Shown here: positions 8,895 through 42,997 of the stretch, piece by piece
Layout of the letters: each line of letters begins with the position of its first letter
Numbering within the stretch: the first letter of the stretch is position 1
Assembly (NCBI GenBank): GCA_040754075.1
Contig: JBFMDH010000006.1
Location: 102,285-166,284, forward strand
Direction of reading: 5' to 3'
DNA length: 64,000 bases
Origin: Acidobacteriota bacterium
GTDB taxonomy: Bacteria; Acidobacteriota; Blastocatellia; UBA7656
Position numbers and translations under genes: made by a program
Notes under the pieces: model-generated
Told to the model about the DNA's origin: nothing
Seen by the model: the letters and a program-made list of their open reading frames with translations, nothing else
Database searches by the model: none

Positions 8895-9188
8895 CTAAGC
8901 GACTGCATATTCGGTGTAAGGTCTGAGGTCAGGGTGGCGAAAACCTAAAACAATTTGATTTTTGGGAATGCCTGCGGCTTCGAGGTCGGTGGCAATGCCT
9001 TCTTCGGTGTTGTTTTCCTGAATCCAGATTTTGCCGTTGACGATTTCCAGATGCGCGATTACTCCGTGTTCGTGCCGTTTATTGTCCCAGCCATAACAGA
9101 GCCATAAATACTGGTCTCGTTCGTGGTCAAAAACAACACGGTCTTCAAGTTCGCTATTTGAGTTAGGAATCTTGGCATAGTTCGTCAA
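8895..9188 (-). CDS. XisI-like protein, probably N-terminally truncated
   Basis: Resembles XisI as recalled (..ERD.Y.....GW...R.HG...HLEI..GKIWIQ.N.TE.GIA..L...GIPK..IVLGF). At 97 aa it is shorter than typical XisI proteins. Confidence 0.5.
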   Translation of the reverse strand: MTNYAKIPNSNSELEDRVVFDHERDQYLWLCYGWDNKRHEHGVIAHLEIVNGKIWIQENNTEEGIATDLEAAGIPKNQIVLGFRHPDLRPYTEYAVA

Positions 9189-9257: not shown

Positions 9258-9476
9258 CTAGAGTTTTTCCCAGTCGTCCTTATCAATTCCGGCTTGTCGT
9301 AGTATGCGGCTCAACAGGTCTTTGCTGATGTCGCCTTGATGTGGATTCGGAATTCGTAGAGTGATTGCGCCTTTCACCATAAATTGATGTTTGCCGCCAG
9401 AGTAAGGACCTTCAAATCCCAGTTGCCGCAAATATTGAATCAAATCTTTTCTTTTAGTCGCGCCGAAACTTGGCAT
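9258..9476 (-). CDS. hicA: HicA-family toxin of a type II toxin-antitoxin pair (mRNA interferase)
   Basis: YcfA/HicA-like sequence. Its start overlaps the hicB stop as ATGA. Confidence 0.65.
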   Translation of the reverse strand: MPSFGATKRKDLIQYLRQLGFEGPYSGGKHQFMVKGAITLRIPNPHQGDISKDLLSRILRQAGIDKDDWEKL

Positions 9477-9718
9477 CAGGCAACTTCCTTGATGGTTAAT
9501 TCGATGCCGTCAGCCACTGGTACAGGCAAATTACGGGAGATGCGAAACAGCAGCCATTCTTCGAGAACTTCCGCCAATTCTTCGCGGCAATCTTCCAGCG
9601 TTGCGGCATTGGCATAAACGCCCTCAAAGCCAGGAATCTCTGCGTAGAAACTATGGTCATCGGGCAAGATTTCGTAGCGTGCCTGTCGCATTGCGGCTTT
9701 CAGATAATTTGTCAACAT
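9476..9718 (-). CDS. hicB: HicB-family antitoxin (UPF0150 fold)
   Basis: YEILPDD..FYAEIPGFEGVYANAATLEDCREELAEVLEEWL is typical of HicB. It is translationally coupled to hicA. Confidence 0.65.
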   Translation of the reverse strand: MLTNYLKAAMRQARYEILPDDHSFYAEIPGFEGVYANAATLEDCREELAEVLEEWLLFRISRNLPVPVADGIELTIKEVA

Positions 9719-11252: not shown

Positions 11253-11281
11253 TTGACAAGGTTAAAAGCCTAAATTATAAA
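11253..11281 (+). promoter_or_regulatory. Candidate sigma-70 promoter (TTGACA, 17-nt spacer, TATAAA) in the AT-rich region upstream of the LuxR gene
   Basis: Hexamers read directly from the sequence. Confidence 0.35.
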
Positions 11282-11470
11282 AGGCTCGAAGCTACAAATA
11301 GTCCCGGAATTTTATAAAAGCAGGGCTAAAAATTATCTCCTTTTTTTCCCTGATGTTCCTGCCCCTTATGAATCGTCTCTTTGCTAATGATTGCTGAGGT
11401 TTTTGTGCCTGAAGGGAATGAACGGATTGCGACCTCTTCATTAGTAGAACAGGAATCAAGGAAAATATCT

Positions 11471-12097
11471 ATGCTCGCTCAAAGTTCTTTTGTCTCTGTG
11501 CCCGTCGAACCACCGCCATTTTTTCAACAAGGAGAGCGGTTCTCCTCACTGGCTAATATCCTTGACGAAATCAACGAAGGCGCACTCTTACTCAATGAAG
11601 AGGGACAGTTGCTCTGGCGCAACCGCGCGTTTGACAAACTTCTGGTTGATAATCGCGAAGGTCATCTGTTGGTGGCTGCCGTCATTGAATTCGCTTCGGA
11701 CTTTTATCAAGACCTCGATGGCGCGGATTTTTCAGGCAATCATCGCGGCAGTTCAAAAATCTATGATGCGACGGTCGGGCGCGTCGAACATGAATTCGTA
11801 TTCTCGTTATTGCCCAAAGGCATGCTTGGAGCCGATTGTTTCCTGCTCTGTGTGGTCAAACGACTGGCGTCCAGATGGTCGAACTATGAAGAACACCTGC
11901 GCCAGAGTTGGTCGCTTACCGAACGCGAGGCGCAAGTCGCTGTTGAATGCCTGCGCGGCAAAAAGAATCTGGAGATTGCCGATTATCTCAAAATCAGCGT
12001 CGAAACGGTCAATAAACATCTGGATAAGGTTTATCAAAAGGCAGGGGTTCGCGGACGCGCCGAACTGGCATCGCGCCTCCTGGACAGCACATTTTAA
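11471..12097 (+). CDS. LuxR-family transcriptional regulator with an N-terminal sensory (PAS-like) domain
   Basis: C-terminal LuxR helix-turn-helix LTEREAQVAVE..NLEIADYLKISVETVNKHL. ATG at 11471 with an AAGGA site. The ORF extends upstream to a TTG at 11381. Confidence 0.7.
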   Translation: MLAQSSFVSVPVEPPPFFQQGERFSSLANILDEINEGALLLNEEGQLLWRNRAFDKLLVDNREGHLLVAAVIEFASDFYQDLDGADFSGNHRGSSKIYDATVGRVEHEFVFSLLPKGMLGADCFLLCVVKRLASRWSNYEEHLRQSWSLTEREAQVAVECLRGKKNLEIADYLKISVETVNKHLDKVYQKAGVRGRAELASRLLDSTF

Positions 12098-12247
12098 TTT
12101 GCCAAATTCAATTTTCTTGCAACGCGCATAAGCTTCGGTGTCGGAGTTTGTGCGCGTTGGCGTTTGTAGACCGCCAACTATTTTGCATCGGCTGCACTTT
12201 AAAATGAACTTGCAAGGACTCGGTGGCAGCGATTATTTTTTAATCCG

Positions 12248-12517
12248 ATGCAAATCAATAAATCCATTGCAACTGTTTTCACGCCGCTTGATGATGGCAC
12301 GGGCATCTTACTTAATAAAGAGACGAAATCCACCTACAGCCTGAATCGCACCGGGTCATTGCTTTGGAAATTGCTCGAAGAAGTCCACAGCGTGTCGCTT
12401 GACGACCTGGTGTTGATTACCTGTGAACGCTTTGATGTTGGCGAAGATGATGCGCGGCTGGCGCTGCTTGCCTTCGTTGACCGCCTGGAAAAATACCGCA
12501 TGATTAAACTCTCCTGA
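12248..12517 (+). CDS. PqqD-family protein (RiPP recognition element, RRE)
   Basis: 89 aa with ..DDGTGILLNKETKSTYSLNRTGSLLWKLL..VSLDDLV..F.V.EDDARLALLAFVDRLEKYRMIK, typical of PqqD/RRE proteins. Confidence 0.6.
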   Translation: MQINKSIATVFTPLDDGTGILLNKETKSTYSLNRTGSLLWKLLEEVHSVSLDDLVLITCERFDVGEDDARLALLAFVDRLEKYRMIKLS

Positions 12518-12745
12518 AGTAATCGCCTGATAAATTCCGCAAGGTCGCCACTGTTTGTATAGTTTATTTTGAATTCGCGGATGCTTACCTGACGGCATTT
12601 GTCAGCCCGGTTATTCCAGTTTTTGTTACACCGATTTGGGGAAGGCGCAGTGCAGGCTTTTATTTTTAATAATTTAGGCTTACCCAAACAGGGCTGAGCC
12701 TTTGGCACGAGCCTTGCCAAATGAAACAGCGTATCTCGAAAGTAT

Positions 12746-12863
12746 GCAGCAATCGGGGTCACGGGGGCGACGCAGATTGCTGCTAACTTAGGGAAGCGAC
12801 AGAAGCACTTTCAATGAGCCACAGCGGGTTAGGGTCACGGGGGCGACGCTGACCTACTGTGGC
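12746..12863 (+). other. Twin stem-loops (12746-12783 and 12818-12863) each carrying the identical 18-nt loop core GGGTCACGGGGGCGACGC; candidate cis-regulatory or small RNA element
   Basis: Stems GCAGCAATC/GATTGCTGC and GCCACAG/CTGTGGC. The shared core falls in different reading frames in the two copies, so it is unlikely to be coding. Confidence 0.4.
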
Positions 12864-13003
12864 TTACTTACATGCTCGACTCCCCCTGAGCAAAGCGCTT
12901 ATTCAAAATATTTTTATCTCCCTTTAACGCTGTCTTAACAACTCAGGAATATAATCAACCTTCTAAGAGATGTAATTCTTGAAAGGAGTATGGGGGATTG
13001 ATT

Positions 13004-13204
13004 ATGAACAATTCGATTTCCAATATACAAAAAAACATCGCGTCATTTGTGCCGGGCGAAAATGTTGAAACCAGTTTCGGACCCGGTGTGGTTTCAAGCG
13101 TCAATCTGATTGATTCGCTGATTTATGTGGCTTTGTCACGCAAGCCCAAAGCGCTCTACATTTTCAAACCTGAACAATTGAATGAAGCAACGGCTGGCGT
13201 ATAA
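13004..13204 (+). CDS. Unannotated small protein (66 aa) downstream of the PqqD-like gene
   Basis: ATG with GGAG/GGGGGA upstream and a 201-nt open frame. No homolog recalled. Confidence 0.3.
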   Translation: MNNSISNIQKNIASFVPGENVETSFGPGVVSSVNLIDSLIYVALSRKPKALYIFKPEQLNEATAGV

Positions 13205-13256
13205 CAGAGCCTCACACTGGCTTGCGAATCAACTATCGCAAGTTGTTCAGGAGGCA

Positions 13257-13391
13257 ATGATGGAATTTATGACCGTAACCGGAACGCAGGATGGTCGTCG
13301 CTATATCGCGATTTACCGAAAATGGTTTAACGAAAAATTGAGCGCCTGGGAACTCAATATGGTTCCGGGCACGTTGCGCTGGTTGAGCTGA
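13257..13391 (+). CDS. Unannotated small peptide (44 aa, MMEFMTVTGTQDGRRYIAIYRKWFNEKLSAWELNMVPGTLRWLS)
   Basis: ATGATG start with a CAGGAGG ribosome-binding site 4 nt upstream. Confidence 0.3.
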   Translation: MMEFMTVTGTQDGRRYIAIYRKWFNEKLSAWELNMVPGTLRWLS

Positions 13392-13708: not shown

Positions 13709-14656
13709 TTGAAAATGTCAGACGAAACCAAAGACCCTAACGCAACTCAAGACACGCCTCAGACGGAAGAACCGCCTAAACCGGAAGCGGTTCCGGCTTC
13801 TACAGAAGCCGCAGCCAAATCGCCAGACGCCAAACTCACCGAAACTGCCAACGTTGAGTCATCAGCGGAAGCCGATAAACCCGTCGATGCCAAGCCGGTT
13901 GACACACCCTCAACCGAAACTCAGACAAAACCTGAAGCGCCTGCTGAAGTATCAACAAAACCCGAACCCCCTAAAGCTGAAGCGCCCGCAAAACCTGCAC
14001 CGCCGCCGCGTCCGCCCGCGCCGCCCAAAGCCACGCCGACGGCTGCCGCCGCAGGTGGACACAAACCGCCCGCGCCGCCCGCAAAAAAAGGGCCGGTCGT
14101 TACGGTTGAGATTACCGACGATCCGTTTATTGATAAAATTAAAGCTAAATTCGGTGATGCCATTTCAGAAGCGGTCGCAACTTACGGACAGAAAATTGTC
14201 CGTGTTAAAAAAGCGACTTATCACGAATTGCTTGAGTTTTTGCATGATGACCCGGACAGCGAGTTCGATATGCTCGCGGATTTAACCGCCATGCATTATC
14301 CGGCAAAAGCCGGTGAAGAGTTCGATATTGTCGCGCAGCTTTATTCAACGACGAAAAATCAACGGTTGCGCGTGAAGACCGCGGTTGCCGATGGCGAAGA
14401 TGCGCCGAGCGTCACGGATATTTGGGAAGGGGCAAATTGGATGGAGCGCGAAGCCTACGATATGTTCGGCGTCAAATTCAGCGGACACCCGGATATGCGC
14501 CGCATCCTACTGCCGGAAGATTGGCCCGGCTTTCCGCTTCGCAAAGAATATCCGATTGAATATCGCGACAATGAGTGGACGGATAAACACATCGAATATC
14601 GCGAGGTCGATTACGATACCAGTTTGATTAATGTGCGTTATGCAGAACGCCGATAA
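13709..14656 (+). CDS. nuoC: NADH-quinone oxidoreductase subunit C (30 kDa) with a roughly 130-aa Pro/Ala/Lys/Glu-rich N-terminal extension
   Basis: C-terminal 180 aa match the NuoC core (EREAYDMFGVKFSGHPD, LPEDWPGFPLRKEYP). Confidence 0.85.
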   Translation: MKMSDETKDPNATQDTPQTEEPPKPEAVPASTEAAAKSPDAKLTETANVESSAEADKPVDAKPVDTPSTETQTKPEAPAEVSTKPEPPKAEAPAKPAPPPRPPAPPKATPTAAAAGGHKPPAPPAKKGPVVTVEITDDPFIDKIKAKFGDAISEAVATYGQKIVRVKKATYHELLEFLHDDPDSEFDMLADLTAMHYPAKAGEEFDIVAQLYSTTKNQRLRVKTAVADGEDAPSVTDIWEGANWMEREAYDMFGVKFSGHPDMRRILLPEDWPGFPLRKEYPIEYRDNEWTDKHIEYREVDYDTSLINVRYAERR

Positions 14657-14665
14657 ATAGATTTT

Positions 14666-14730
14666 AGTTTGTAGCCCATAGTCCGTAGTTCAGATTTCTG
14701 CTACGGGCTACGGGCTACAAACTGCGGACT
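14666..14730. repeat. Tandem-heptamer hairpin with unit AGCCCGT/AGTCCGT
   Basis: Left arm (AGTTTGT)(AGCCCAT)(AGTCCGT)(AGTTCAG). The reverse complement of the right arm is (AGTCCGC)(AGTTTGT)(AGCCCGT)(AGCCCGT). Confidence 0.75.
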
Positions 14731-14737
14731 CATCAAT

Positions 14738-15871
14738 ATGCAATCCATCGAAGTAACCAAACCACACGAAACGTTACTCGACACCGAAGAGATGGTGTTG
14801 AATATGGGACCGCAACACCCTTCGACGCACGGCGTGTTGCGCGTCATTTTAAAGCTTGATGGCGAGACCGTCACCGACCTTGATTGCGATGTCGGCTACC
14901 TGCACAGAGGCGTTGAAAAGATTGCCGAAAATTGCACCTATCAGATGATTACCCCTTACTGGGATCGGCTCGATTACGTTGCCGCGGTTTCAAACGACCT
15001 GGTTTATGTCGAAGCCGTCGAGAAATTGTTGCAGGTCGAAGTGCCGCGTCGCGCTCAGTATTTGCGGGTGATTTTAACCGAACTGCAACGCATTGCTTCG
15101 CATCTGCTGTGGCTTGGCACCCACGCCATTGATATTGGCGCAGTCACTGTGCTGCTTTATTGTTTCCGCGAGCGCGAAGAGATTTTGAAAATCTTTGAAG
15201 ATTTCATCGGCGCGCGCTTAACGGCGCATGCGTTTCGCATCGGTGGTTTGTGGTGGGATGCTTACCCGGAATTTGTTGAGCGGGTGCGCGCCTTTATTCA
15301 GATGATGCCCGGTCGCATTGATGAATACGAAACCCTGTTGAACACCAATCGCATCTGGCTGTCGCGCACGGTCGGCATCGGACATATCTCTGCCGAAGAC
15401 GCGATCAATTACAGTTTGACGGGTCCTGTGCTGCGCGGGTCGGGGGTCAAATATGACATTCGCAAAGCCAATCCCTACTCGGCGTATTCCGAATTCGATT
15501 TTGAAGTTCCGATTGGCGAAAACGGCGACACCTATGACCGTTATCTTTGCCGCATGGCTGAACTCAGGCAATCGCTGCTTATCATTGAACAGGCATTGAA
15601 TGGATTGCCGGAGGGACCGGTGATGGCGAAGGTGCCCAAGATTATCAAACCGCCGGTTGGCGAAGTGTATCATTCGATTGAAGCGCCGAAAGGTGAAATC
15701 GGCGTTTATCTGGTGAGCGATGGAACCGGTAAACCCTATCGCATGCGTATTCGTCCGCCTTCATTTATTAATCTGCAAGCGTTGAAGAAGATGTCCATCG
15801 GGCATCTGGTCGCAGATGTTGTGGCAATCATCGGAACGATTGACATCGTTCTGGGCGAAGTTGACAGGTAA
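14738..15871 (+). CDS. nuoD: NADH-quinone oxidoreductase subunit D (49 kDa)
   Basis: Conserved throughout, 377 aa. Confidence 0.9.
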
Positions 15872-15874
15872 TTT

Positions 15875-15928
15875 CAGTAATGAGTGATGAGTTATCGCTC
15901 GTCATTCTTTACTCATCACTGATCACTG
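15875..15928. repeat. Tandem-heptamer hairpin with unit AGTAATG/AGTGATG
   Basis: CAGTAATGAGTGATGAGTTATCG ... reverse complement of CTTTACTCATCACTGATCACTGAA. Confidence 0.7.
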
Positions 15929-15935
15929 AAGAACT

Positions 15936-17267
15936 ATGCAAGCACTCCTAACTATAACGTTGTTTGTTGCGCCGGAATGGGTGAGAAATCTGACAGGCGA
16001 AAAATTGCCCAATGTTTTCTGGGCTGAATATGTCGTCTGGCCGCTCGTTCAAATTATTGTTGTGCTTTTCATCATTCTGACGCTGGTGGCTTATCTGGTT
16101 TATGTCGAGCGTAAGGTATCGGCATTCATGCAGGCGCGACTCGGGCCGATGCGCGTTGGTCCTTGGGGACTATTGCAACCGGCTGCCGACGGACTCAAAC
16201 TCTTACTCAAAGAAGACATCATTCCGATTAAAGCCGACAAAGCGATTTTCCAACTCGCGCCGATTATTTCGGTCGCCGCGGCACTCGTTGTGCTGGCGGT
16301 CATTCCCTGGGGCGCGGCTTGGGCAACAATTGCCAACGTCAACATCGGCTTGCTGTTCATTCTCGCGGTGTCCTCGGTCGGGGTGCTTGGTTTAGTGCTT
16401 GCCGGTTGGTCATCGAATTCAAAATATTCATTGCTTGGGGCGCTTCGTTCATCGGCACAGATGGTGAGCTATGAAATCGGCATGGGACTTTCAATCATCG
16501 GGGCATTGATGTTTGCCCGCACCCTGTCGATGAACGGCATCATTGAAGCCCAACGCGCCGATGGCATCTGGTATTTTCTTTTTCAACCGCTCGGCTTTCT
16601 GGTTTATATCATCAGCGCGCTTGGCGAAACCAACCGCGCGCCATTCGATTTACCCGAAGCCGAATCCGAACTCGTCGCCGGTTATCACACGGAGTATTCG
16701 GGCTTTCGCTGGGCGCTGTTTTTTATGGCGGAATACACCGCGATGATTGTCACGTCGGCAATTGCGGTTACACTCTTTTTAGGCGGCTGGTCGTTTCCAG
16801 GATTGGATTTGATTAAAGACCCGAATATCTATGTGATTGCCAGCGTCCTGGTTTTTGCCGCAAAAGTCATGGCGTTGATTTACGCTTATATGTGGTTCCG
16901 CTGGACGTGGCCGCGTTATCGTTACGATCAGTTGATGGAACTCGGTTGGAAATGGATGATTCCGGCAGGGTTGGTGAACATCGTCCTCACGGGAATTTTA
17001 TATGTGCTGGCAATGCCGAAATCGCGCGGTGGATTTTTTGATTTCATGCACGAAGTCAACGGGCGGTTGACGCCAACCGGCGCGGGAAAAGTTTTCTTTA
17101 TTGTCACCGGTTTTTTAATCACCATTCCGGTGTCGTGGGCGATACTCGCATACATCAATCGCCATTCGCCGGATTTCAATTTAGATGAACAGCGACAGTT
17201 GCAAATCGCTTTGCGGCGCGAACGGCTGAAGAAAATCGAAGCGCAGTCGCCCGCCGAATCGAATTGA
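15936..17267 (+). CDS. nuoH: NADH-quinone oxidoreductase subunit H with a roughly 100-aa C-terminal extension
   Basis: Conserved NuoH core. Confidence 0.9.
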   Translation: MQALLTITLFVAPEWVRNLTGEKLPNVFWAEYVVWPLVQIIVVLFIILTLVAYLVYVERKVSAFMQARLGPMRVGPWGLLQPAADGLKLLLKEDIIPIKADKAIFQLAPIISVAAALVVLAVIPWGAAWATIANVNIGLLFILAVSSVGVLGLVLAGWSSNSKYSLLGALRSSAQMVSYEIGMGLSIIGALMFARTLSMNGIIEAQRADGIWYFLFQPLGFLVYIISALGETNRAPFDLPEAESELVAGYHTEYSGFRWALFFMAEYTAMIVTSAIAVTLFLGGWSFPGLDLIKDPNIYVIASVLVFAAKVMALIYAYMWFRWTWPRYRYDQLMELGWKWMIPAGLVNIVLTGILYVLAMPKSRGGFFDFMHEVNGRLTPTGAGKVFFIVTGFLITIPVSWAILAYINRHSPDFNLDEQRQLQIALRRERLKKIEAQSPAESN

Positions 17268-17280
17268 AAATCGTCTTAGG

Positions 17281-17353
17281 TTCAACCAGCGGTCTTTGAC
17301 CGCGACCTGGTGAGAAAGCGATTGACTATTTAGCGAGTGGTCTTTGACCGCAC
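17281..17353. repeat. REP-like elements, two direct copies
   Basis: CAGCGGTCTTTGACCGCGA and GTGGTCTTTGACCGCAC. Confidence 0.65.
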
Positions 17354-17410
17354 AATCAATGGCGTTAAACCATATTGAATTTGTCCTAATAAATTTGTAG
17401 TAGGTGAATT

Positions 17411-17956
17411 ATGACAGTCACATCAGTGCCGGGAAGAAGGCGAACTTTTACGAATGCCATCAAACGGCTGCTTTTGATTGATTTATTCAAAGGTCTGGCA
17501 GTGACCTTTAAATATAATCTTCGCGCCTTGTATGAAAAACGCGAAGGCGGCAATCCCAATCAGGCGATTTACACCGAGCAGTATCCGCTCGAACCGGCTC
17601 GCGTATCCGAGCGGTTTCGCGGCGCGCCGCGTCTCAACCTCGACCCGGAAACCGGCGGCACATTGTGTATTGCCTGCGACCTGTGCGCGCTGGCGTGCCC
17701 GGTTGATTGCATCACCGTCAACTCGACCCGTCGCGAAGTGCGTGACGGCGAAAAGGTGAACAAGAAAAAAGTGCTCACCACCTTTTTCTTCGACACCTCG
17801 CGTTGTATGTTTTGCAATCTCTGTTCGGAAGCCTGCCCGACCGATTGTCTGGAACTGACGCAAAGCTTCGAGCTTGCGGTTTATCACCGTTCAGGTTTCC
17901 GCTGGGATAGAGAAATGCTCGAAAAGGGCGTGAAGTATGTGAAATATAATAAGTAG
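17411..17956 (+). CDS. nuoI: NADH-quinone oxidoreductase subunit I (two 4Fe-4S ferredoxin motifs)
   Basis: CIACDLCALACP and CMFCNLCSEACP motifs. Confidence 0.9.
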   Translation: MTVTSVPGRRRTFTNAIKRLLLIDLFKGLAVTFKYNLRALYEKREGGNPNQAIYTEQYPLEPARVSERFRGAPRLNLDPETGGTLCIACDLCALACPVDCITVNSTRREVRDGEKVNKKKVLTTFFFDTSRCMFCNLCSEACPTDCLELTQSFELAVYHRSGFRWDREMLEKGVKYVKYNK

Positions 17957-18117
17957 TCCAGAGTCTGGAGTCTGGAGTCTGGAGTCAAAATAAAGAAAAG
18001 TGAAGTATGAATGATGAGGTATGAACAATTAAATTATTCTTTCAGTTCATCGTTCCGACTTTATCGTTTTCCTAAATTCTGACTCCCGACGCCAGACGCC
18101 AGACTCCAGACTCCCGG
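17954..18117. repeat. Tandem-heptamer hairpin with unit CTGGAGT; the longest one, with about 34-nt arms and a 93-nt interior carrying a secondary palindrome
   Basis: Left arm (CCAGAGT)(CTGGAGT)x3. The reverse complement of the right arm is (GGGAGT)(CTGGAGT)(CTGGCGT)(CTGGCGT)(CGGGAGT). Confidence 0.8.
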
Positions 18118-18124
18118 AGAATGG

Positions 18125-18721
18125 ATGCAACTACACGGATGGGAAGCAGTTCTCTTTTATGTACTGGCGTTTTCGACGCTGATTATGGGTGTGCTGGTGG
18201 TGTCGGCGCGCATCGCTGTACATTCGGCGCTTTTTTTAATCGGCACGCTGGTCAACATCGCCTTGCTGTTTATTCTGCTGCGCTCTGAATTCGTCGCCGG
18301 TGTGCAGATACTGGTTTATGTCGGCGGCGTGATGGTTTTGTTCCTGTTCGTCATTATGCTGGTGCAGACCCGCGCCGAAGAAGAGGCGAAAATCAAACTC
18401 TACACCGGGCAGATGTGGAGCGCCGTGGTCATTGCCTTGCTGCTTGCGGGCGGATTCTTTTTCGCCATGCATCCGGCGCAACCGGCATTTCGTCCGTCAA
18501 TCGAAGCCGCGCAGGAAACCCAGAGTAAACAGGACGAAGCCACCGAACGCACCCAAGCCGGTGCCGGTCAGGCAATTTCCACCGACACTCAGGATGTCGG
18601 TCAGGCGCTTTATAAAGAAGCTGCGCTGCCTTTTGAAATCGCTTCGGTGTTGTTACTCGTCGCGATGGTTGGCGCGGTGTTGCTCGCACGCGGCACCAAA
18701 CAAGAGAGCGAGCATAATTGA
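18125..18721 (+). CDS. nuoJ: NADH-quinone oxidoreductase subunit J with a charged C-terminal extension
   Basis: Conserved NuoJ transmembrane core. Confidence 0.85.
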   Translation: MQLHGWEAVLFYVLAFSTLIMGVLVVSARIAVHSALFLIGTLVNIALLFILLRSEFVAGVQILVYVGGVMVLFLFVIMLVQTRAEEEAKIKLYTGQMWSAVVIALLLAGGFFFAMHPAQPAFRPSIEAAQETQSKQDEATERTQAGAGQAISTDTQDVGQALYKEAALPFEIASVLLLVAMVGAVLLARGTKQESEHN

Positions 18722-18795
18722 TTCGCAATTTTCCTTCGCCGCATTAATTGATTCGATTTTCATTCGCTCATTTTTGATTCATTGAGGAGAACGCT

Positions 18796-19227
18796 GTGAC
18801 CCATCTTCTGTTAAGCGCATTCGGATTCTTAGCATTTATCCAAACTCAAGCTCAACAAAACGAACCATTCCTCAAACGTTTTGAACCGACGCTGGTCAAT
18901 TTTCTGATGCTCAGTTTTCTGTTATTTGTCGTCGGCATTGCAGGTGTTTTGTCGCGGCGCAATATCATCATCATTTTCATGTCCATTGAACTGATATTGA
19001 ATGCGGTCAATCTCAATTTGATTGCCTTCTCGCGCTATTTTCAATTGAACCCGGATGCATTAAAGAAGATGGGGCTTGACCCGAATCCGCTTTCCGGGCA
19101 GGTCTTTACAATTTTCATCATCGTCGTTGCCGCTGCCGAAGCCGCAGTCGGACTAGGTATCGTCATCTCGCTTTTCCGCAATCGCGAAACCGTCGAGGTT
19201 GACGAAATTGATTTATTGAAATGGTAA
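18796..19227 (+). CDS. nuoK: NADH-quinone oxidoreductase subunit K (GTG start, GAGGAG ribosome-binding site, about 35-aa N-terminal extension)
   Basis: Conserved ..[25 protein letters not shown].. NuoK core. Confidence 0.85.
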
Positions 19228-19233
19228 CTAGCA

Positions 19234-19311
19234 AGTAATGAGTAATGAGTGATGAGTGATGAGTGGATAGCCCACAACTTACTCATTACTCATTACTCAT
19301 TACTCATCACT
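19234..19311. repeat. Tandem-heptamer hairpin with unit AGTAATG
   Basis: Left arm (AGTAATG)x2(AGTGATG)x2. The reverse complement of the right arm is (AGTGATG)(AGTAATG)x3. The loop is GATAGCCCACAA. Confidence 0.85.
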
Positions 19312-19318
19312 TGGAAAT

Positions 19319-21469
19319 ATGTTAAAACTCGTTTGGCTTATACCCGTCTTACCCCTCATCGGCTTTTTAATCAATTTCATTCTCGGCAAAAAGCTTGCCC
19401 TCAGCGAAAAGGCTGTCTCTGTAATTGCCTGCGGCGTCATTCTGTTGTCGCTGTTGCTGACCATTGGGGCGTTTTTTGACTACAAGTACAACTTCAATCC
19501 GCAGAATGAAACCAAGCCTTATGTGACGAGTCGCGAAGGCGGCTTTGGCTTCACCTGGATGCCCGGCGGTCGCGCCCATCAAACGCAAGGTGAAGAAGCG
19601 GGAAAGCTTGCGAATTTCAACATCGAGTGGAGCTATCAAATTGACCAACTGTCGCTGGTGATGATGTTCGTCGTCACCTTTGTTGGTTTTTTGATTCACG
19701 TCTTTGCCACCGGGTATATGCACGGCGACACCGGATTTTATCGCTTTTTCGCTTACCTCAATCTGTTTATGTTCATGATGCTTCTGCTGGTGATGGGGTC
19801 GAACTTCATGATTATGTTCATCGGCTGGGAAGGCGTAGGGCTTTGTTCGTATCTGCTCATCGGTTACTACATCAATAAACAGGAAGCGGGCGACGCTGCA
19901 AAGAAGGCTTTCGTCGTCAACCGCATCGGCGATTTCGGTTTTGCGCTGGCAATTATGGGGGCGTTTGCCACTTTCGGCACTTTGCAATTCGATGAGATGG
20001 CGCGCGTGGCAAGCGCCTATCATGTGGAAGCGTTTGGCGCATTTGGACTGATGAGTTGGCTGGCGCTTGGACTGTTTATCGGCGCGACCGGTAAGAGCGC
20101 GCAGATTCCGCTCTATATCTGGTTGCCGGATGCAATGGCAGGTCCCACGCCCGTATCGGCGCTGATTCATGCGGCAACGATGGTGACGGCAGGCGTGTTT
20201 ATGGTGACGCGCACCAATTTTATTTTTCAACGCTCCGGGACAATGATGGCGGTCGTTGCCATCGTCGGCTGCGCGACGGCACTGGTTGCGGCAACCATCG
20301 GCATCACGCAAACCGACATTAAAAAAGTGCTGGCTTATTCGACGGTCTCGCAACTCGGCTATATGTTCTTAGGCGCAGGCGTCGGCGCATTCATTGCGGC
20401 AATTTTCCACGTCTTCACACACGCCTTTTTCAAAGCCCTGCTTTTCCTCGGCTCCGGTTCAGTGATTCACGGCATGCATCATGAACAGGAGATGCCGAAA
20501 ATGGGCGGTTTGAAAAAATATATGCCCACGACCTACAAAACCATGCTGATGGGATGGTTGGCGATTTGCGGCATTCCGATTTGGGCAGGCTTCTTCTCGA
20601 AAGACGAAATTCTCTGGAGCACCTTCAATTCGCACATCTTCGGCGGCGCAAAAGTTTTATGGATTATCGGCTTGATTACTGCTGGCATCACTGCCTTCTA
20701 TATGACGCGGTTGATGACGCTGACCTTTGAAGGCGAAGAGCGATTTAGAAAAAACCCTGATGCGCATTCAGCGCACGGACATGATGGGCATGGTCATCAC
20801 GGCACATTTGAACCGCACGAATCGCCGCAGAGCATGACTGTGCCGCTCATTGTGCTGGCGTTCTTTTCGACTTTCGTCGGACTTCTGGGCATTCCGCACT
20901 ACAGCGCCTTCGAGCATTGGCTTGAACCGGTGATGGATAAACCGCACGGAGCGGAAGCTGCGCATGGCAGTTTCGGGCTTGAGGTGGGGCTGATGATTGT
21001 ATCGGTTGCCGTAGCCGTTATTGGCATCTATCTGGCGCGACAATTTTATTTGAACAGACCGCAACTTGCCGAAGAGTGGACGAAGCGTTTACAACCGCTC
21101 TACAAACTCAGTTTCAATAAGTGGTATTGGGACTGGCTGCTGGATGTAAAAGGCGTCGAAGCAGGCAAGTCCGTAAACAACGCGCTCTGGAAAGTTGATG
21201 CGGCAGTCGTTGACGGTGGTGTCAACGGCGCGGGGGCGCTGACGCGCATCTGGGCGCGCATCAGCAACCTCTGGGACAAGTATGTGGTTGATTTATTAGT
21301 GAACGCCACCGGCTGGACATCGAAAGCCGGTTCGATTGTTCTGAGAACCGTGCAGACCGGATTCTGGCAAAATTACGCGCTGGTGTTCGCGCTTGGCGTT
21401 TTGATTATTCTGGGATTTTATGTTTTCCCGGCAATATCAACGACCTTTAGAGCTTTATTTGGGAAGTAA
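19319..21469 (+). CDS. nuoL: NADH-quinone oxidoreductase subunit L
   Basis: 716 aa with the conserved antiporter-like core and a long C-terminal horizontal helix region. Confidence 0.9.
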   Translation: MLKLVWLIPVLPLIGFLINFILGKKLALSEKAVSVIACGVILLSLLLTIGAFFDYKYNFNPQNETKPYVTSREGGFGFTWMPGGRAHQTQGEEAGKLANFNIEWSYQIDQLSLVMMFVVTFVGFLIHVFATGYMHGDTGFYRFFAYLNLFMFMMLLLVMGSNFMIMFIGWEGVGLCSYLLIGYYINKQEAGDAAKKAFVVNRIGDFGFALAIMGAFATFGTLQFDEMARVASAYHVEAFGAFGLMSWLALGLFIGATGKSAQIPLYIWLPDAMAGPTPVSALIHAATMVTAGVFMVTRTNFIFQRSGTMMAVVAIVGCATALVAATIGITQTDIKKVLAYSTVSQLGYMFLGAGVGAFIAAIFHVFTHAFFKALLFLGSGSVIHGMHHEQEMPKMGGLKKYMPTTYKTMLMGWLAICGIPIWAGFFSKDEILWSTFNSHIFGGAKVLWIIGLITAGITAFYMTRLMTLTFEGEERFRKNPDAHSAHGHDGHGHHGTFEPHESPQSMTVPLIVLAFFSTFVGLLGIPHYSAFEHWLEPVMDKPHGAEAAHGSFGLEVGLMIVSVAVAVIGIYLARQFYLNRPQLAEEWTKRLQPLYKLSFNKWYWDWLLDVKGVEAGKSVNNALWKVDAAVVDGGVNGAGALTRIWARISNLWDKYVVDLLVNATGWTSKAGSIVLRTVQTGFWQNYALVFALGVLIILGFYVFPAISTTFRALFGK

Positions 21470-21478
21470 AAGTTTTTA

Positions 21479-21545
21479 CCACAGAGACACCGAGGCACAG
21501 AGATAAAAATATAATTTCTTCTCTGTGTCTCGGTGCCTCTGTGGT
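21479..21545. repeat. Hairpin with 8-nt tandem units CACAGAGA/CACCGAGG; 25-bp arms with one mismatch
   Basis: ACCACAGAGACACCGAGGCACAGAG ... CTCTGTGTCTCGGTGCCTCTGTGGT. Confidence 0.85.
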
Positions 21546-21578
21546 TATCCATAAATCTATTCTCTCTCAGGAGATGGC

Positions 21579-23357
21579 ATGAAGAACATTCTTTCATTAA
21601 CGACCTGGCTGCCGACCATCGGCGCAATCATTCTGCTCTTTTTCAACAAATCGAAAAACGATGCGATTCGCTGGTTTGCCAATATCTGGATGGGGCTTTG
21701 CTTTTTAATCTCTATCCCCATCATCACAGGCTATGACAAAGGGCTTGGTGGGTTACAATTCATCGAAGATTACGACTGGATTCCACTGATCGGCGCGCGT
21801 TATCAACTCGGCGTCGACGGACTCACGGTGACGTTGATTATTTTAACGACCTTGCTCGGCGTGATTGCGGCGGTCTGTTCGTGGTCTTATATACGCGAAA
21901 AAGGGCGCGAGAAAGAATACTACATCATGCTCTTGTTGTTGCAGACCGGCATGATTGGCGCGTTCGTTGCGGCAGACCTGTTCCTGTTTTTCATCTTCTG
22001 GGAAGTGATGCTGGTGCCGATGTACTTTCTGATTGGCATCTGGGGCGGCAAAAATCGCCTCTATTCGGCAATCAAATTTTTCCTCTACACACTGGTCGGT
22101 TCCGTGCTGATGTTGCTTGCGGTTTTAAAACTCTATTTCGTGTTTCCCGAAGTCGTAAAAGCGCAACTTGAACCGACGCGAGTAACCGCTATGCAATACG
22201 CCACCAATCAGGCGACCGGCAGAGTTAATGATGGCATGATGAAGATGGTTGAGGATGCCCTCAAGCGCGCACAAGGCATAGACCCCTCGGATGCAAGCGG
22301 CAAAAAATCCCTGCCCACAAGTCATGTCCGCTCGTCGTTTAACATTGCGGCGCTGACGGCAATCGGGCCACACATCAAAACGGTTTATGGCGTGAGCGTG
22401 GTTATCTGGATGTTTTTAGGGTTTGCCATTTCCTTTGCGATTAAGGTGCCGATGTTTCCCTTCCACACCTGGTTGCCGGACGCCCACTATGACGCGCCGA
22501 CTGCCGGGTCAGTTATTCTGGCGGGGGTGTTGCTGAAGATGGGAACTTACGGTTTTATGCGATTTTCCTTGCCGATATTTCCCGATGCCGCAACCCATCC
22601 GACGGTCAGAGCGTGGGTGATTGTGCTGGCGATTGTCGGCATCATTTACGGCGCGCTGGTCGCAATGGCGCAAAAAGATGTGAAGAAATTGGTCGCTTAT
22701 TCGTCCGTCTCGCACCTGGGCTTTGTGATGCTCGGACTGTTTGCCTTGAACCCGAACGGCATCAATGGCGCGGTGATGCAGATGATCAATCACGGCATTT
22801 CAACCGGCGCGCTCTTCATGCTTGCGGGTATTTTGTACGAACGCCGCCACACTTATGAGATTGCCGAATTCGGCGGACTGGCAAGCGTGATGCCGACCTA
22901 TTCGACGATCTTTTTAATCGTTACGCTGTCCTCACTTGGTTTGCCATTGATGAACAATTTCATCGGCGAGTTTTTGGTTTTAAGAGGCGCGTTTGAAGCC
23001 AATGTTTACTGGGGCGCGCTTGCCACAGTCGGCATTATTTTAGGCGCGGCGTATATGCTGTGGCTCTATCAACGGGTGTTTTTCGGCGAAGTGAAAAACG
23101 ACCACAACCGGGAGTTACCGGATATGAATGCGCGTGAAGCGTGGCAATTTGCGCCGCTCATCTTTTTGATTTTCTTCATCGGCATCTATCCGAAACCGGT
23201 GCTCGATTTCATCAATCCGCAAACCGAAGCGGTGGTCGCGCAAGTTTACCCGGACTATTTCAAACCGGCTGCTCAACCTGCGGTGGCAAAAGAAAAAATG
23301 GAAGGGCAAACCGGCGAAGAAGAAAAAGTTGCGCCCAAAGCCGGTGAGTCGCATTAA
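21579..23357 (+). CDS. nuoM: NADH-quinone oxidoreductase subunit M with a roughly 75-aa internal insertion
   Basis: Conserved NuoM core. The insertion spans approximately residues 185-260. Confidence 0.9.
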   Translation: MKNILSLTTWLPTIGAIILLFFNKSKNDAIRWFANIWMGLCFLISIPIITGYDKGLGGLQFIEDYDWIPLIGARYQLGVDGLTVTLIILTTLLGVIAAVCSWSYIREKGREKEYYIMLLLLQTGMIGAFVAADLFLFFIFWEVMLVPMYFLIGIWGGKNRLYSAIKFFLYTLVGSVLMLLAVLKLYFVFPEVVKAQLEPTRVTAMQYATNQATGRVNDGMMKMVEDALKRAQGIDPSDASGKKSLPTSHVRSSFNIAALTAIGPHIKTVYGVSVVIWMFLGFAISFAIKVPMFPFHTWLPDAHYDAPTAGSVILAGVLLKMGTYGFMRFSLPIFPDAATHPTVRAWVIVLAIVGIIYGALVAMAQKDVKKLVAYSSVSHLGFVMLGLFALNPNGINGAVMQMINHGISTGALFMLAGILYERRHTYEIAEFGGLASVMPTYSTIFLIVTLSSLGLPLMNNFIGEFLVLRGAFEANVYWGALATVGIILGAAYMLWLYQRVFFGEVKNDHNRELPDMNAREAWQFAPLIFLIFFIGIYPKPVLDFINPQTEAVVAQVYPDYFKPAAQPAVAKEKMEGQTGEEEKVAPKAGESH

Positions 23358-23459
23358 TCGTCTGAGAGTTTGTACCACCCCTGGTTAGCGGGCGGGTTCT
23401 CTCGATATAACGCAGCACGACAGGGCGGCATTTACCGCCTTTCTTACAAAAGAAAAACC

Positions 23460-25124
23460 ATGATCTTAGCACTTCTACAAACAACGGTTGATCTCTCAGC
23501 CATCGCCAAACAAACCACACAGTTGCTCATGCCCGAAGTGATTTTGATTCTCTTCGCTTGCGGCGCGCTGGTTCTCGATGTGTTGTTGCCGCGCGGGCAA
23601 AAACGCGCCGTCGCGTGGTTGAGCCTTGGCGGATTGGGCGTGTCGCTGGTCTCGTTAATCCTTCTCTACGCAGATGTCTTATCCCAGGGCGGCGCGCGCA
23701 AAGGTTTCTTTGACATGATTGTCATTGATACCTATGGCTTCGTTTTCAAAGTGATATTCATCATCGGAGCCATCATCTCTATTTTGCTGTCGATTCGCTA
23801 TCTCGACGAAGAAGGCGAGCAACGCGGCGAATATTATTCGCTGATTCTGTTTTCCGTAGTTGGCATGATGTTTATGGCATCGGGCGCGGATTTACTCAGT
23901 CTGTTTATCGCCCTTGAACTGATGGCGATTTCGATTTACATCCTGGTCGGTTATTTGCGCCGTAGCGAAAAATCGAATGAAGCGGCAATGAAATATTTTC
24001 TACTTGGCGCATTTTCATCCGGCATTCTGCTCTATGGCATTTCACTGGTCTACGGCATGACCGGCACCACCAACCTTGCCAACATCGCCGCCGCGCTGCC
24101 GACGGTTATCAGTAAAAGTTATGCGCCGCTCGGCACGGTTGCCGATATGCGTTATCTGGTGTTGATGTCCATGATTTTGATGGCAGCCGGGATGTTCTTT
24201 AAAGTTGCAGCAGTGCCTTTTCATATGTGGGCACCCGACGCTTACGAAGGCGCGCCGACGTCGGTCACAGCGTTCATGTCGGTTGCTGTGAAAGCCGCAA
24301 GTTTCGCCATGTTCGGGCGCATCTTCCTTTATGGCTTATCGGATATTCGCGGCGCGATTGCGGGCAATGCCGCAAATAATATTCCGGGGCTTCCCGGCTG
24401 GTGGGCGTTGATGAGCGTGGTCGCTGCCATCACTATCGTCTGGGGAAATCTTGCGGCGCTGACGCAAAACAACACTAAACGATTGCTCGCTTATTCATCG
24501 ATTTCACACGCGGGCTACACGTTGCTCGGTATGATTGCCGGCAATCGCACGGGCTACACCGGGTTTGTGATTTATCTGTTCATTTACACGTTAATGAACC
24601 TGGGGGTTTTCGGGTGCATCATCGCGCTGCGCCGTCAAGGGGTGATTGGCGACCAGATGGAAGACCTCAACGGACTCATCAAAAAATCGCCGTGGCTCAC
24701 GGTGATGATGACGATCTTTCTGTTATCGCTTGGCGGCATTCCGCCGACCGCGGGGTTCATCGGCAAGTTCTATCTGTTTGCCGGGCTTATTGAAACCGGC
24801 AACCCCTGGCTTGTGCGTCTGGCAATCCTTGCGGTGCTGATGAGCGCGGTGTCACTTTATTACTATCTTCGTTTCATTCGCGCGATGTATATTGATGAAG
24901 GCAAAGAGAGCGCGCCGATAGCTGCGGCAATGCCGCTCAGGGTTGCGCTGGGGGTTGCGGCAATTCTCGTCCTGTTAATCGGCATCTTCCCGCAGCGGTT
25001 GATTGATTTGACACAAAAAGCGGGAGCGGAACCGAAGACTTACATTTATGAAAAGAAGGACGCGACCGAAACCGAAAGTAAAGATGACGAGTCGGATGAG
25101 CCGATGCGTTCATCTGCAAAATAA
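23460..25124 (+). CDS. nuoN: NADH-quinone oxidoreductase subunit N
   Basis: ATG at 23460 (MILALLQTTVDLSAI..) matches the NuoN N-terminus. The upstream TTG at 23370 was rejected. Confidence 0.85.
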   Translation: MILALLQTTVDLSAIAKQTTQLLMPEVILILFACGALVLDVLLPRGQKRAVAWLSLGGLGVSLVSLILLYADVLSQGGARKGFFDMIVIDTYGFVFKVIFIIGAIISILLSIRYLDEEGEQRGEYYSLILFSVVGMMFMASGADLLSLFIALELMAISIYILVGYLRRSEKSNEAAMKYFLLGAFSSGILLYGISLVYGMTGTTNLANIAAALPTVISKSYAPLGTVADMRYLVLMSMILMAAGMFFKVAAVPFHMWAPDAYEGAPTSVTAFMSVAVKAASFAMFGRIFLYGLSDIRGAIAGNAANNIPGLPGWWALMSVVAAITIVWGNLAALTQNNTKRLLAYSSISHAGYTLLGMIAGNRTGYTGFVIYLFIYTLMNLGVFGCIIALRRQGVIGDQMEDLNGLIKKSPWLTVMMTIFLLSLGGIPPTAGFIGKFYLFAGLIETGNPWLVRLAILAVLMSAVSLYYYLRFIRAMYIDEGKESAPIAAAMPLRVALGVAAILVLLIGIFPQRLIDLTQKAGAEPKTYIYEKKDATETESKDDESDEPMRSSAK

Positions 25125-41638: not shown

Positions 41639-42997
41639 ATGACGCAAAAGAAAAAAATCGGCATGGTCAGTCTCGGTTGTCCCAAAAATCTCGTTGACAG
41701 CGAAGTGATGATGGGGCTGCTCGCACAGCAAGGCTATGAACTCACCCACAATCAACAGGACGCCGATGTGTTGGTGGTCAATACCTGCGGGTTTATTGAT
41801 TCGGCGCGACAGGAATCGGTTGAAACGATTCTGGAAATGGCGGAATTCAAAAAATCCGGCAAAGCCCAGCAACTCATCGTCGCGGGCTGTCTGGTCGAAC
41901 GCTATCACGAAGAGTTGCAAAAAGAGATTCCCGAAATTGATGCATTGATTGGCGTCAATCAACTGACGGAAATCACCTCAATCGTCAAACCGAATGGCGC
42001 AAAACCGTTGCCGATTTACAGCGAAGGGCGCACCGCGCCTGAACTTTTTCTTTACGACGAAACCACCCCCAGACTTCGCGCCACCGCGCCTTACAGTTCG
42101 TATGTGAAGATTGCCGAAGGCTGCGACCACACCTGCGCCTTTTGCATTATTCCGAAACTGCGCGGCGTATTTCGCAGCCGGTCGCCGGAATCCATTTTGC
42201 GCGAAGTTGAAATTCTCGCGGCGCAAGGCGTCAAAGAAATCGTTTTGATTTCGCAGGACACCACCGCATACGGAAGCGACCTGGCTTTAAAAGACGGCTT
42301 GGCGCAACTGGTTGAATCCATCGCCAATGTCGAAGGCATCGAGTGGGTGAGGTTTTTATATTGTTACCCGACTGCCATCAGCGATGAACTATTGCGGGTG
42401 ATGGCTGAACATCCAAACGTCTGCAAATATTTCGACATCCCTTTGCAACACGCGAGCAGCAATGTATTGAAGTTGATGCGGCGCGGCGGCAATCGCCAGT
42501 CTTATGAACGATTATTCAAACGCATCCGCGAACGGGTGCCGGGGGTGGCGCTGCGCACCACCTTCATTGTCGGCTTTCCCGGCGAGACTGACGCGGATTT
42601 TCAGGAACTCGTCGAATTCGTCAACGCCATGCAATTTGACCGCGTCGGCGTTTTCACCTATTCGGATGAAGAGAACTCTCCGGCGTTTGAAATCGACAAC
42701 AAAGTGCCGCATTCAGTGGCAAAAAAGCGCGAAAAGATTTTAATGAAAGCGCAGGCGAAAATTTCCAAACGCAAGAACAAAGCTTTAGTTGGCAAGCGCG
42801 TGCAAGTCCTGCTTGAAGGCAAATCGAAAGAGAGCGATTTACTGCTTGAAGGTCGCATGCAATCGCAAGCGCCGGAAATTGACGGCTGCGTATTAATCAA
42901 CGATATACCCGAAGAGGCGGACATTCGCGCCGGCGATTTCGTCACCGTTGAAATCACCGAAGCCCACGAATACGATATAATTGCGCGAATCATTTAA
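41639..42997 (+). CDS. rimO: Ribosomal protein S12 methylthiotransferase RimO (MTTase N-terminal domain, radical SAM domain, TRAM domain)
   Basis: MTQKKKIGMVSLGCPKN.. N-terminus, CDHTCAFC radical SAM motif, TRAM C-terminus. Confidence 0.8.
   Translation: MTQKKKIGMVSLGCPKNLVDSEVMMGLLAQQGYELTHNQQDADVLVVNTCGFIDSARQESVETILEMAEFKKSGKAQQLIVAGCLVERYHEELQKEIPEIDALIGVNQLTEITSIVKPNGAKPLPIYSEGRTAPELFLYDETTPRLRATAPYSSYVKIAEGCDHTCAFCIIPKLRGVFRSRSPESILREVEILAAQGVKEIVLISQDTTAYGSDLALKDGLAQLVESIANVEGIEWVRFLYCYPTAISDELLRVMAEHPNVCKYFDIPLQHASSNVLKLMRRGGNRQSYERLFKRIRERVPGVALRTTFIVGFPGETDADFQELVEFVNAMQFDRVGVFTYSDEENSPAFEIDNKVPHSVAKKREKILMKAQAKISKRKNKALVGKRVQVLLEGKSKESDLLLEGRMQSQAPEIDGCVLINDIPEEADIRAGDFVTVEITEAHEYDIIARII

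Follow-up and report, generated by a model that had tools for sequence, protein, structure and literature searches.

A conserved Blastocatellia cassette joining a LuxR-type regulator, a stand-alone PqqD/RRE protein and a sigma-54-preceded 43-aa peptide: a candidate regulatory use of the RRE fold, with a new twin-hairpin RNA motif

The 64-kb stretch of a Blastocatellia (Acidobacteriota) genome analysed here, referred to below as the window, carries at positions ~11253-13391 a small cassette made up of a LuxR-type regulator, a PqqD-family protein of the type that acts as recognition element (RRE) for peptides made on the ribosome and modified after translation (RiPPs), a structured spacer, and two small open reading frames (ORFs), sORF1 and sORF2. 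These elements had all been proposed in an earlier note on this DNA; all are present, and they are conserved in about 20 related loci. The locus set was assembled from the contigs of PqqD homologues, twelve GTDB species representatives and three contigs found via the 43-aa protein encoded by sORF2, and its ~20 distinct loci, cited below by L numbers, nearly all bear the label Blastocatellia or Acidobacteriota. They include 13 loci, the window among them, that have both sORF1 and a pair of RNA hairpins (group-1) and five that have neither (group-2), so strictly do these two components co-occur. The features of the cassette in the window are as follows.

11253-11281, + strand: sigma-70-type promoter of the LuxR gene, TTGACA (11253-11258), 17-nt spacer, TATAAA (11276-11281), by sequence reading
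11359-11366, + strand: invariant CUGCCCCU box in the 5' leader of the LuxR gene, from the alignment of 14 leaders
11471-12097, + strand: LuxR/GerE-family regulator, 208 aa, N-terminal domain of ~140 aa and C-terminal helix-turn-helix (HTH), by PF00196 and homology
12210-12239, + strand: promoter-like TTGCAA, 17 nt, TTATTT, ending ~9 nt 5' of the PqqD ATG, by alignment
12248-12517, + strand: PqqD-family/RRE protein, 89 aa, acidic, by PF05402
12590-12604, no strand assigned: inverted repeat TGACG-N5-TGTCA, candidate activator site ~110 nt upstream of the sigma-54 promoter, from the group-1 alignment
12625-12643, no strand assigned: another inverted repeat (GTTACNCCGATTTGGGTAAC-like, arranged 7-2-7), also a candidate activator site, ~75 nt upstream of the sigma-54 promoter, from the group-1 alignment
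12703-12717, + strand: sigma-54 promoter, -24 TGGCAC, N5, -12 TTGC, a canonical and conserved motif
12729-12867, + strand: twin-hairpin RNA domain, from an exact repeat, covariation and a covariance model
12747-12782, + strand: hairpin 1, loop 12761-12768, on an outer helix 12730-12798, from the consensus structure
12818-12863, + strand: hairpin 2, loop 12837-12844, from the consensus structure
12918-12955, + strand: conserved block TCTCCCTTTAAC...AGGAATATAAT, with TATAAT at 12950-12955, from the leader alignment
13004-13204, + strand: sORF1, 66-aa all-beta protein, probably a Tudor/SH3-like barrel, by conservation and an AlphaFold2 (AF2) model
13260-13391, + strand: sORF2, 43-aa basic peptide MEFMTVTG..RRYIAIYRKWFNEKLSAWE..VPGTLRW, by conservation and third-position excess

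The order and orientation of the core trio LuxR-PqqD-sORF2 are fixed across loci (tblastn), with identities of 65-85% for LuxR, 43-89% for PqqD and 63-88% for sORF2, and the trio is retained while PqqD identity drops from 89% to 43%. Three look-ups seeded with sORF2 each led back to this same cassette. The 27 PqqD homologues all derive from metagenomes or metagenome-assembled genomes (MAGs), and every one with a named source is from Acidobacteriota. Two GTDB records (L014 and L020) are titled 'uncultured Clostridia bacterium' and carry the Blastocatellia-type LuxR-PqqD cassette together with a conserved small RNA (sRNA)-like element described below; the Clostridia title is probably a taxonomic mislabelling of the two MAGs. 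In L014 a frameshift splits sORF2. A literature search on PqqD with LuxR, exopolysaccharide (EPS) or HPr-related systems did not find a description of the cassette.

The alignment of the PqqD-like ORF to the PF05402 profile, on which its assignment in the earlier note had been made to depend, held at 51.5 bits (E=1.3e-13; cutoff 23.4 bits), over profile positions 3-67 of 67. The best matches of a profile of 16 PqqD orthologues are solved B1 RREs of lasso peptide systems, namely TbiB1 (5v1u; E=1.2e-7), 9x90_B (3.1e-5) and TfuB1 (1.9e-3), and the best NCBIfam matches of the protein are the lasso and ScmD chaperones. It scores below every curated NCBIfam subfamily cutoff (lasso, ScmD, HPr-rel-A); the HPr-rel-A PqqD model (TIGR04353) gave 25.3 bits against a cutoff of 35, and there are no kinase genes near. 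The components of a PQQ operon, namely PqqA (E-x3-Y), the radical SAM enzyme PqqE, PqqB and PqqC, are not present, and the NCBIfam model for the PqqD of the PQQ pathway is not among the matches.

Both small ORFs have an excess of third-position changes (954/572/1774 and 909/647/2799 by codon position), and on this sequence evidence both are real genes under purifying selection. The earlier note had described them as unannotated and lying at 13004-13204 and 13257-13391. The first position is exact and both ORFs are conserved, but the second starts by homology one codon later, at 13260, which gives a peptide of 43 aa, and the NCBI MAG record does list the 66-aa ORF, as hypothetical protein AB1757_08695. 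Neither belongs to a Pfam or NCBIfam family. sORF2 is conserved over its whole length, with 17 invariant columns across 32 sequences, and forms a narrow family: it has 75 close homologues, and 1.8 billion representatives contain only about 13 of its clusters at 50% identity; a profile search for remote relatives also returned spurious repeat-protein matches, and the contigs of its two most distant members are too short for context, one of them showing a sigma-54 promoter. In its AF2 model (pLDDT 69) residues 2-21 form a beta-hairpin, accompanied by a short helix and a disordered tail, and fold and PDB searches gave no meaningful match.

sORF1 (62-68 aa) is confined to the 13 group-1 loci. Its AF2 model is all-beta, with four strands, and of low confidence (pLDDT 60), and Foldseek matches with it are weak (E of at least 2.5e-3), consistently to Tudor/SH3/KOW-type barrels including the RNA-polymerase-binding domains of RapA, Mfd and UvrD/PcrA. 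The shallow model and the weakness of the Tudor-like assignment are explained by the homologue search, which gave only 2 proteins owing to a word-index limit, and we treat the Tudor-like identity as a lead from modelling.

The earlier note had also remarked that no maturase genes adjoin the cassette, and this holds both in the window and in the ~20 orthologous loci. The large ORFs of the window, swept with Pfam except for the nuoD-N block, which was assigned by homology to relatives, include no Asn-synthase-like cyclase, transglutaminase-like protease, radical SAM-SPASM enzyme, YcaO or Lan enzyme; the sole radical SAM protein found in the window is a methylthiotransferase of the MiaB/RimO type (41639-42997). 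In the relatives, where the precomputed Pfam matches of called genes were consulted over flanks of ~5-10 kb on each side, no RiPP maturase was found around any of the ~20 loci, and the 16 loci used for flank clustering likewise gave none in flanks of up to 10 kb on each side. Lasso B2 (PF13471) and C (PF00733) had no match in the scanned ORFs of the window or in the precomputed matches of the relatives.

RiPP genes are normally clustered, and the lack of a maturase in 64 kb and in the flanks of ~20 syntenic loci thus weighs against a RiPP pathway whose enzymes act in trans, with sORF2 (or sORF1) as the precursor, PqqD as a discrete B1-type RRE delivering it to a protease/cyclase or a radical SAM enzyme, and LuxR and sigma-54 regulating production. 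The small ORFs, which the earlier note had put forward as candidate precursors or ligands, point the same way: the 43-aa peptide is a plausible ligand but is unlike a RiPP precursor, its alignment having no leader/core split, no lasso YxxP...T(-2) and no PqqA motif, and the full lasso precursor pattern (YxxP, Thr at -2, a core beginning with G/A/S/C and D/E at 7-9) is found in neither the sORF1 nor the sORF2 alignment; in particular sORF2 lacks both the T at -2 and a G1 combined with D/E at 7-9. The subfamily scores below cutoff also count against this pathway. In its favour are the lasso B1 proteins as closest solved relatives of PqqD, the lasso and ScmD chaperones as its top NCBIfam matches, a Y-x-x-I in sORF2 that fits the loose recognition pattern W/Y/L-xx-P/L/I, although a match of this kind is expected by chance, and the fact that all characterised RREs are biosynthetic and serve a modifying enzyme (PMC7470986, PMC12710340). 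On balance we consider a pathway in trans unlikely. The end-to-end conservation of the peptide and its disordered tail mean that a binding partner fits better than a precursor made of a leader and a variable core; read from the sequences, PqqD is acidic and sORF2 basic.

The TTGACA-17-TATAAA promoter is read directly from the sequence, as the earlier note had done, and TTGACA-N17-TATAA is kept upstream of LuxR in 14/14 orthologous loci. The regulator itself was correctly recognised as LuxR-type: its GerE HTH matches PF00196 at E=1.2e-13 (residues 178-231 of a 238-aa ORF), and its start by homology is the ATG at 11471, which gives 208 aa, and not the first TTG at 11381. The HTH is nearest to those of EpsA, CsgD and VpsT, at scores under all the equivalog cutoffs. 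The conserved N-terminal domain of ~140 aa has no Pfam match, and a PAS identity for it was rejected, with PDB matches at E~0.4 only and none in Pfam. A defence-system reading was likewise rejected, PADLOC having matched the HTH alone, via CARF-HTH models. The LuxR leader of ~180-200 nt is variable apart from the CUGCCCCU box, within which TGCCCCT is identical in 14/14 aligned leaders, and no consensus structure was found in these 14 leaders or around the box.

Between LuxR and PqqD, the motif CTTGC(A/G)...(G)(A/T)(T/C)TAT(T/C)TT is kept in 14/14 loci and the remainder of the spacer is unalignable. Since this conserved TTGCA-17-TTATTT lies ~9 nt before the PqqD ATG, and no Shine-Dalgarno sequence can be read upstream of that ATG, the arrangement suggests a separate PqqD transcript that would be leaderless or near-leaderless. 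Given three promoters in the cassette, LuxR, PqqD and the small ORFs therefore appear to form three transcription units and not one operon behind the TTGACA promoter.

The third of these promoters lies in the PqqD-sORF1 spacer (12518-13003). The earlier note had described this spacer as about 480 nt of structured non-coding DNA; its length is 486 nt and its folding is more stable than that of shuffled sequence (z=-3.96, + strand), but it is not one element, consisting instead of a ~210-nt sigma-54 promoter region with upstream inverted repeats and a ~275-nt transcribed leader with the twin-hairpin RNA. Its alignment contains strongly conserved non-coding blocks. The TGGCAC-N5-TTGC at 12703 is the sole strict sigma-54 match in the 64 kb. 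A sigma-54 promoter is found in all group-1 loci, upstream of the hairpin leader, and 30-50 nt upstream of sORF2 in the five group-2 loci, and it precedes every intact copy of sORF2 including the most distant homologue (47 aa, L056); from sequence, the drive of sORF2 by sigma-54 is the invariant arrangement. Because the promoter stands directly before sORF2 in group-2 and L056, sORF2 would be its ancestral target.

Upstream of the promoter, TGACG-N5-TGTCA occurs as a single copy per group-1 locus at constant position, the repeat at 12625-12643 is a conserved group-1 block of the form GTTACNCC-AT-TTGGGTAAC-like, and an AT-rich block is also common to group-1. Repeats and an AT-rich block upstream are the usual layout of an enhancer-dependent promoter. 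We presume the second repeat to resemble NarL-type 7-2-7 sites, which we take as a lead only. Within the leader, 3' of the hairpins, the sequence TCTCCCTTTAAC...TATAAT is conserved and has no consensus structure by RNAalifold; this TCTCCCTTTAAC...AGGAATATAAT block may be either a motif of the leader or a -10 element internal to it.

The transcript predicted to start at ~12729 has both hairpins within its first ~140 nt. Their apexes are an exact 18-nt repeat, GGGTCACGGGGGCGACGC, whose copies lie 76 nt apart (chance expectation 0), with an 8-nt loop of consensus A(C/A)GGGGGC (ACGGGGGC, and AAGGGGGC in one locus) on a 3-bp apical stem that covaries (GUC/GAC, AUC/GAU, GUU/AAC). RNAalifold of ten sequences gave 40 pairs, of which 13 show compensatory changes; in the pair count on ten sequences, 96% were paired and the 13 compensatory pairs compare with 6.2 +/- 1.6 after shuffling (0/500) and with at most five when the partners were slid. 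When 12 sequences were counted, the paired fraction of cells was 97.6% and 17 of the 41 pairs had compensatory changes, compared with 6.1 +/- 1.7 after shuffling and at most five with slid partners; this alignment is fitted to the model and hence biased to structure. The + strand is the functional one, since several conserved G-U pairs fix the strand. Rfam has no match in the window at gathering score, and at E<=10 only a chance RAGATH-33 outside the element. A covariance model matches only group-1 loci and has no match in any group-2 locus or in the rest of the window; in L017 the two hairpins are replaced by a single fused one. With this support from covariation and no entry in Rfam, the twin-hairpin RNA is a new motif.

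A CRISPR-like mini-array was rejected as an explanation of the repeat, given that there are two copies only, that the inter-repeat sequence AGAGAAGCGACAGAAGCAC is near-invariant across species and that the two copies form the apexes of covarying hairpins. A metagenome search with the twin motif returned mostly unrelated CRISPR and coding repeats, and three true members. The 12-mer TCACGGGGGCGA belongs to several unrelated CRISPR repeat families (loci L023, L028, L037, L041, L044, L051 and others), which is why CRISPR arrays dominate searches with the apex motif only.

The hairpins could also be thought of as an independent sigma-54-dependent sRNA that ends at hairpin 2 and acts in trans via its GGGGGC loops, for instance on the CUGCCCCU box, with sORF1 and sORF2 transcribed from a TATAAT promoter of their own (12950-12955). 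A U-rich tract follows hairpin 2 and is strong in several loci (UUUGUUUUUU in L003 and L057), the conserved TATAAT lies ~50 nt upstream of sORF1, and the CUGCCCCU box, which is complementary to the loops over 6-7 bp, is the top duplex site for the hairpin loop in 6/7 loci. The U-rich tract is, however, not conserved: it reads CUUACUUACAUG in the window and is lacking in L058, and hairpin 2 is thus not a universal terminator. A convincing -35 element is absent near the TATAAT, the sigma-54 promoter stands directly before sORF2 in group-2 and L056, the 6-7 bp pairing is not statistically significant, ~10% of shuffled leaders being as good, and the box is conserved also in loci without hairpins. 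We therefore regard an independent sRNA as improbable.

Some relatives carry, outside the window, a ~190-nt intergenic element that is 85-95% identical where PqqD is only ~50% identical. It has a promoter-like sequence of its own, TTGACG...TATGATATAA, folds at -69.5 kcal/mol (z=-4.0), presents GGGGGC in hairpin loops and lacks any Rfam match up to E<=10. The element is likely to be a Blastocatellia sRNA, housekeeping or regulatory, that has yet to be described. Its positions are as follows.

L012, 10871-11110: ~190-nt element
L008, 5761-5996: ~190-nt element
L013, 1561-1794: ~190-nt element
L014, 10675-10910: ~190-nt element
L016, 5643-5869: ~190-nt element
L018, 10462-10695: ~190-nt element
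L019, 10534-10760: ~190-nt element
L020, 10881-11115: ~190-nt element
L015, 11450-11673: ~190-nt element
L017, 13192-13415: ~190-nt element

The neighbourhood of the cassette in relatives provides a link to exopolysaccharide. In a clustering of flanking ORFs from 16 loci including the window, a divergent upstream block of Wzz-like, AAA_22 ATPase, ParA/BY-kinase-like, Bac_transf and Wza-like genes was found in 10/16, accompanied by a ~115-aa family in 9/16, and L057 and L058 have the same block. Its best NCBIfam matches are to XrtA/PEP-CTERM families: TIGR03013 reaches 470 bits, above its cutoff of 393, and TIGR03007, 03015, 03018 and 03027 each stay below their own cutoff; no exosortase gene was seen in any flank. 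The linkage of the cassette to an EPS locus in relatives points to a regulatory role and away from the making of a natural product. The block is replaced, in the window as in the nearest relative, by PAP2, SGL, HicAB and XisI genes, the last two of which lie in the window at the following positions.

8895-9188, - strand: XisI-family protein, by Pfam
9258-9718, - strand: HicA toxin and UPF0150 (HicB-like) antitoxin pair, by Pfam

That XisI/HicAB stand where relatives have EPS genes suggests that DNA was inserted or rearranged upstream of the cassette.

The downstream neighbours are nuoC-D-H-I... in group-1 loci; in group-2 loci they are genes for a Zn-ribbon/receiver protein and a PilT-like ATPase. 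That the cassette lies immediately 5' of nuoC-D-H-I in most group-1 loci, that its units have separate promoters and that one component is missing in some loci would be expected if PqqD were an orphan domain and the genes mere conserved neighbours, the small proteins serving the downstream nuo operon or an unrelated process. This seems to us quite improbable: the order and orientation of LuxR-PqqD-sORF2 persist while the flanks vary (EPS, PAP2, nuo, PilT-like and others), group-2 keeps the trio without a nuo neighbour, and the sORF2 family is seen only in this context.

Some further observations concern the flanks themselves. The nuo operon of the window (13709-25124) begins at nuoC right after the cassette, with no nuoA/B upstream, and runs nuoC-D-H-I-J... 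without nuoE/F/G, a gene order common to the window, L001, L006 and L007. NuoC (13709-14656) has its Complex1_30kDa domain at residues 164-285, behind a low-complexity N-terminal extension of ~160 aa rich in Pro/Ala/Lys/Glu; the NuoC products of relatives have 273-371 aa. Elsewhere in the window, 50595-52058 (- strand) encodes a TPR protein that ends in a Fis-type HTH_8 and has no sigma-54 AAA+ domain, and 57666-60122 (- strand) a large HD-GYP/GAF/GGDEF cyclic di-GMP protein; nothing found here ties either of them to the cassette.

Taken together, the explanation we favour, while giving it somewhat less than an even chance, is that of a lineage-specific (Blastocatellia) regulatory cassette and not a local RiPP cluster, in which the RRE is the receptor or chaperone of a sigma-54-gated peptide alongside an EpsA/CsgD-like LuxR regulator. 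Its first unit is this regulator, with its sigma-70-type promoter and long leader, its second the stand-alone, apparently near-leaderless PqqD/RRE protein, and its third the enhancer-dependent sigma-54 promoter leading to the 43-aa peptide, to which one sublineage adds the hairpin leader and the Tudor-like protein of 62-68 aa. By analogy with the way RREs bind leader peptides, the RRE may bind the 43-aa peptide by strand addition. The complex could then be a signal-gated switch, the peptide being made only once a sigma-54 activator fires, and it might modulate either the LuxR regulator itself or the exopolysaccharide/biofilm genes that this regulator targets. An extra, co-inherited layer of control on the sigma-54 transcript would come from the hairpin leader and Tudor-like protein, and could provide a protein-binding or translational control site. 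The bolder form of this proposal, which we consider rather doubtful, is that the RRE has been co-opted for signalling as a PqqD-fold receptor of the sigma-54-gated 43-aa peptide, the two jointly controlling a LuxR matrix regulator, with coupling in a sublineage to a GGGGGC-loop twin-hairpin riboregulator and a Tudor-like protein.

Several observations weigh against a regulatory cassette of this kind. Since every characterised RRE serves a modifying enzyme, a non-enzymatic role is without precedent. No sigma-54 activator (GAFTGA/AAA+) is encoded in the 64-kb window; the EPS block is absent from the entire window and is not adjacent to the cassette there or in the closest relative, L007; and in group-1 the EPS genes are no more constant as neighbours than the nuoC-N operon. 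The matches of the LuxR regulator to equivalogs are limited to the HTH, at 36 bits against a cutoff of 170 for EpsA (TIGR03020) and 35 against 250 for CsgD. The trio itself is incomplete in places: L018 and L019 keep LuxR and PqqD with sORF2 undetectable, and L010 is without LuxR. L010 also has a 22-aa PqqD fragment duplicated at 2811-2876.

RRE/PqqD domains serve as class-independent beacons in RiPP genome mining. A widely conserved RRE-peptide pair without a nearby maturase would, if true, give such mining false positives systematically; it would also be a candidate example of the RRE fold in a regulatory role outside biosynthesis and the first enzyme-independent RRE-peptide pair. The cassette is probably a control circuit tied to exopolysaccharide/biofilm formation in Blastocatellia, an abundant and poorly studied group of soil bacteria, and its sigma-54 promoter, 43-aa peptide and twin-hairpin RNA are concrete, directly testable parts.

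Among known systems, the cassette resembles the B1 proteins of lasso peptide pathways (TbiB1, TfuB1) and the PqqD of the PQQ pathway in having a PF05402 protein of ~90 aa, a profile match to solved B1 structures and a small peptide gene nearby, whereas it differs from them in having no B2 protease, C cyclase, PqqE or other maturase in 64 kb or in the flanks of ~20 loci, and in a peptide that lacks YxxP/T(-2) or the PqqA E-x3-Y and is conserved end to end. With the CsgD and VpsT biofilm regulators, the LuxR protein shares a GerE-type C-terminal HTH as its best similarity and the linkage to matrix/EPS genes in relatives, and it differs from them in an N-terminal domain that is not a receiver; we know of no pairing of CsgD or VpsT with an RRE protein. 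Nor, to our knowledge, has a role for PqqD been described in the PEP-CTERM system, to which the cassette has further likenesses. PEP-CTERM regulons have sigma-54 promoters with upstream activator sites before small single-gene operons, in large intergenic regions (Haft et al. 2006, PMC1569441), and the cassette likewise has a sigma-54 promoter, a large upstream region and a small single-gene-like unit. Further likenesses to the XrtA/PEP-CTERM EPS regulon (PrsK/PrsR/PrsT, EpsA; PMC1569441) are the EPS genes of this type that adjoin the cassette in relatives and a LuxR-family regulator at the edge of the locus. The cassette differs in that sORF2 lacks a signal peptide, a PEP motif and a transmembrane/Arg tail, the window is without the EPS locus, a PrsR-like activator was not seen, and the match between LuxR and EpsA covers the HTH only. 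The RNA, finally, is like multi-hairpin RNAs that sequester proteins or serve as leaders and repeat a loop motif, such as CsrB/RsmZ with their GGA loops, in its tandem hairpins, identical and invariant purine-rich loop and covarying stems, but it belongs to no Rfam family, its loop is A(C/A)GGGGGC and not A(N)GGA, and its two copies lie in cis in a sigma-54 leader. Set beside these systems, what is new here is an RRE in a maturase-less regulatory setting together with an RNA motif, for which we infer the mechanism proposed above.

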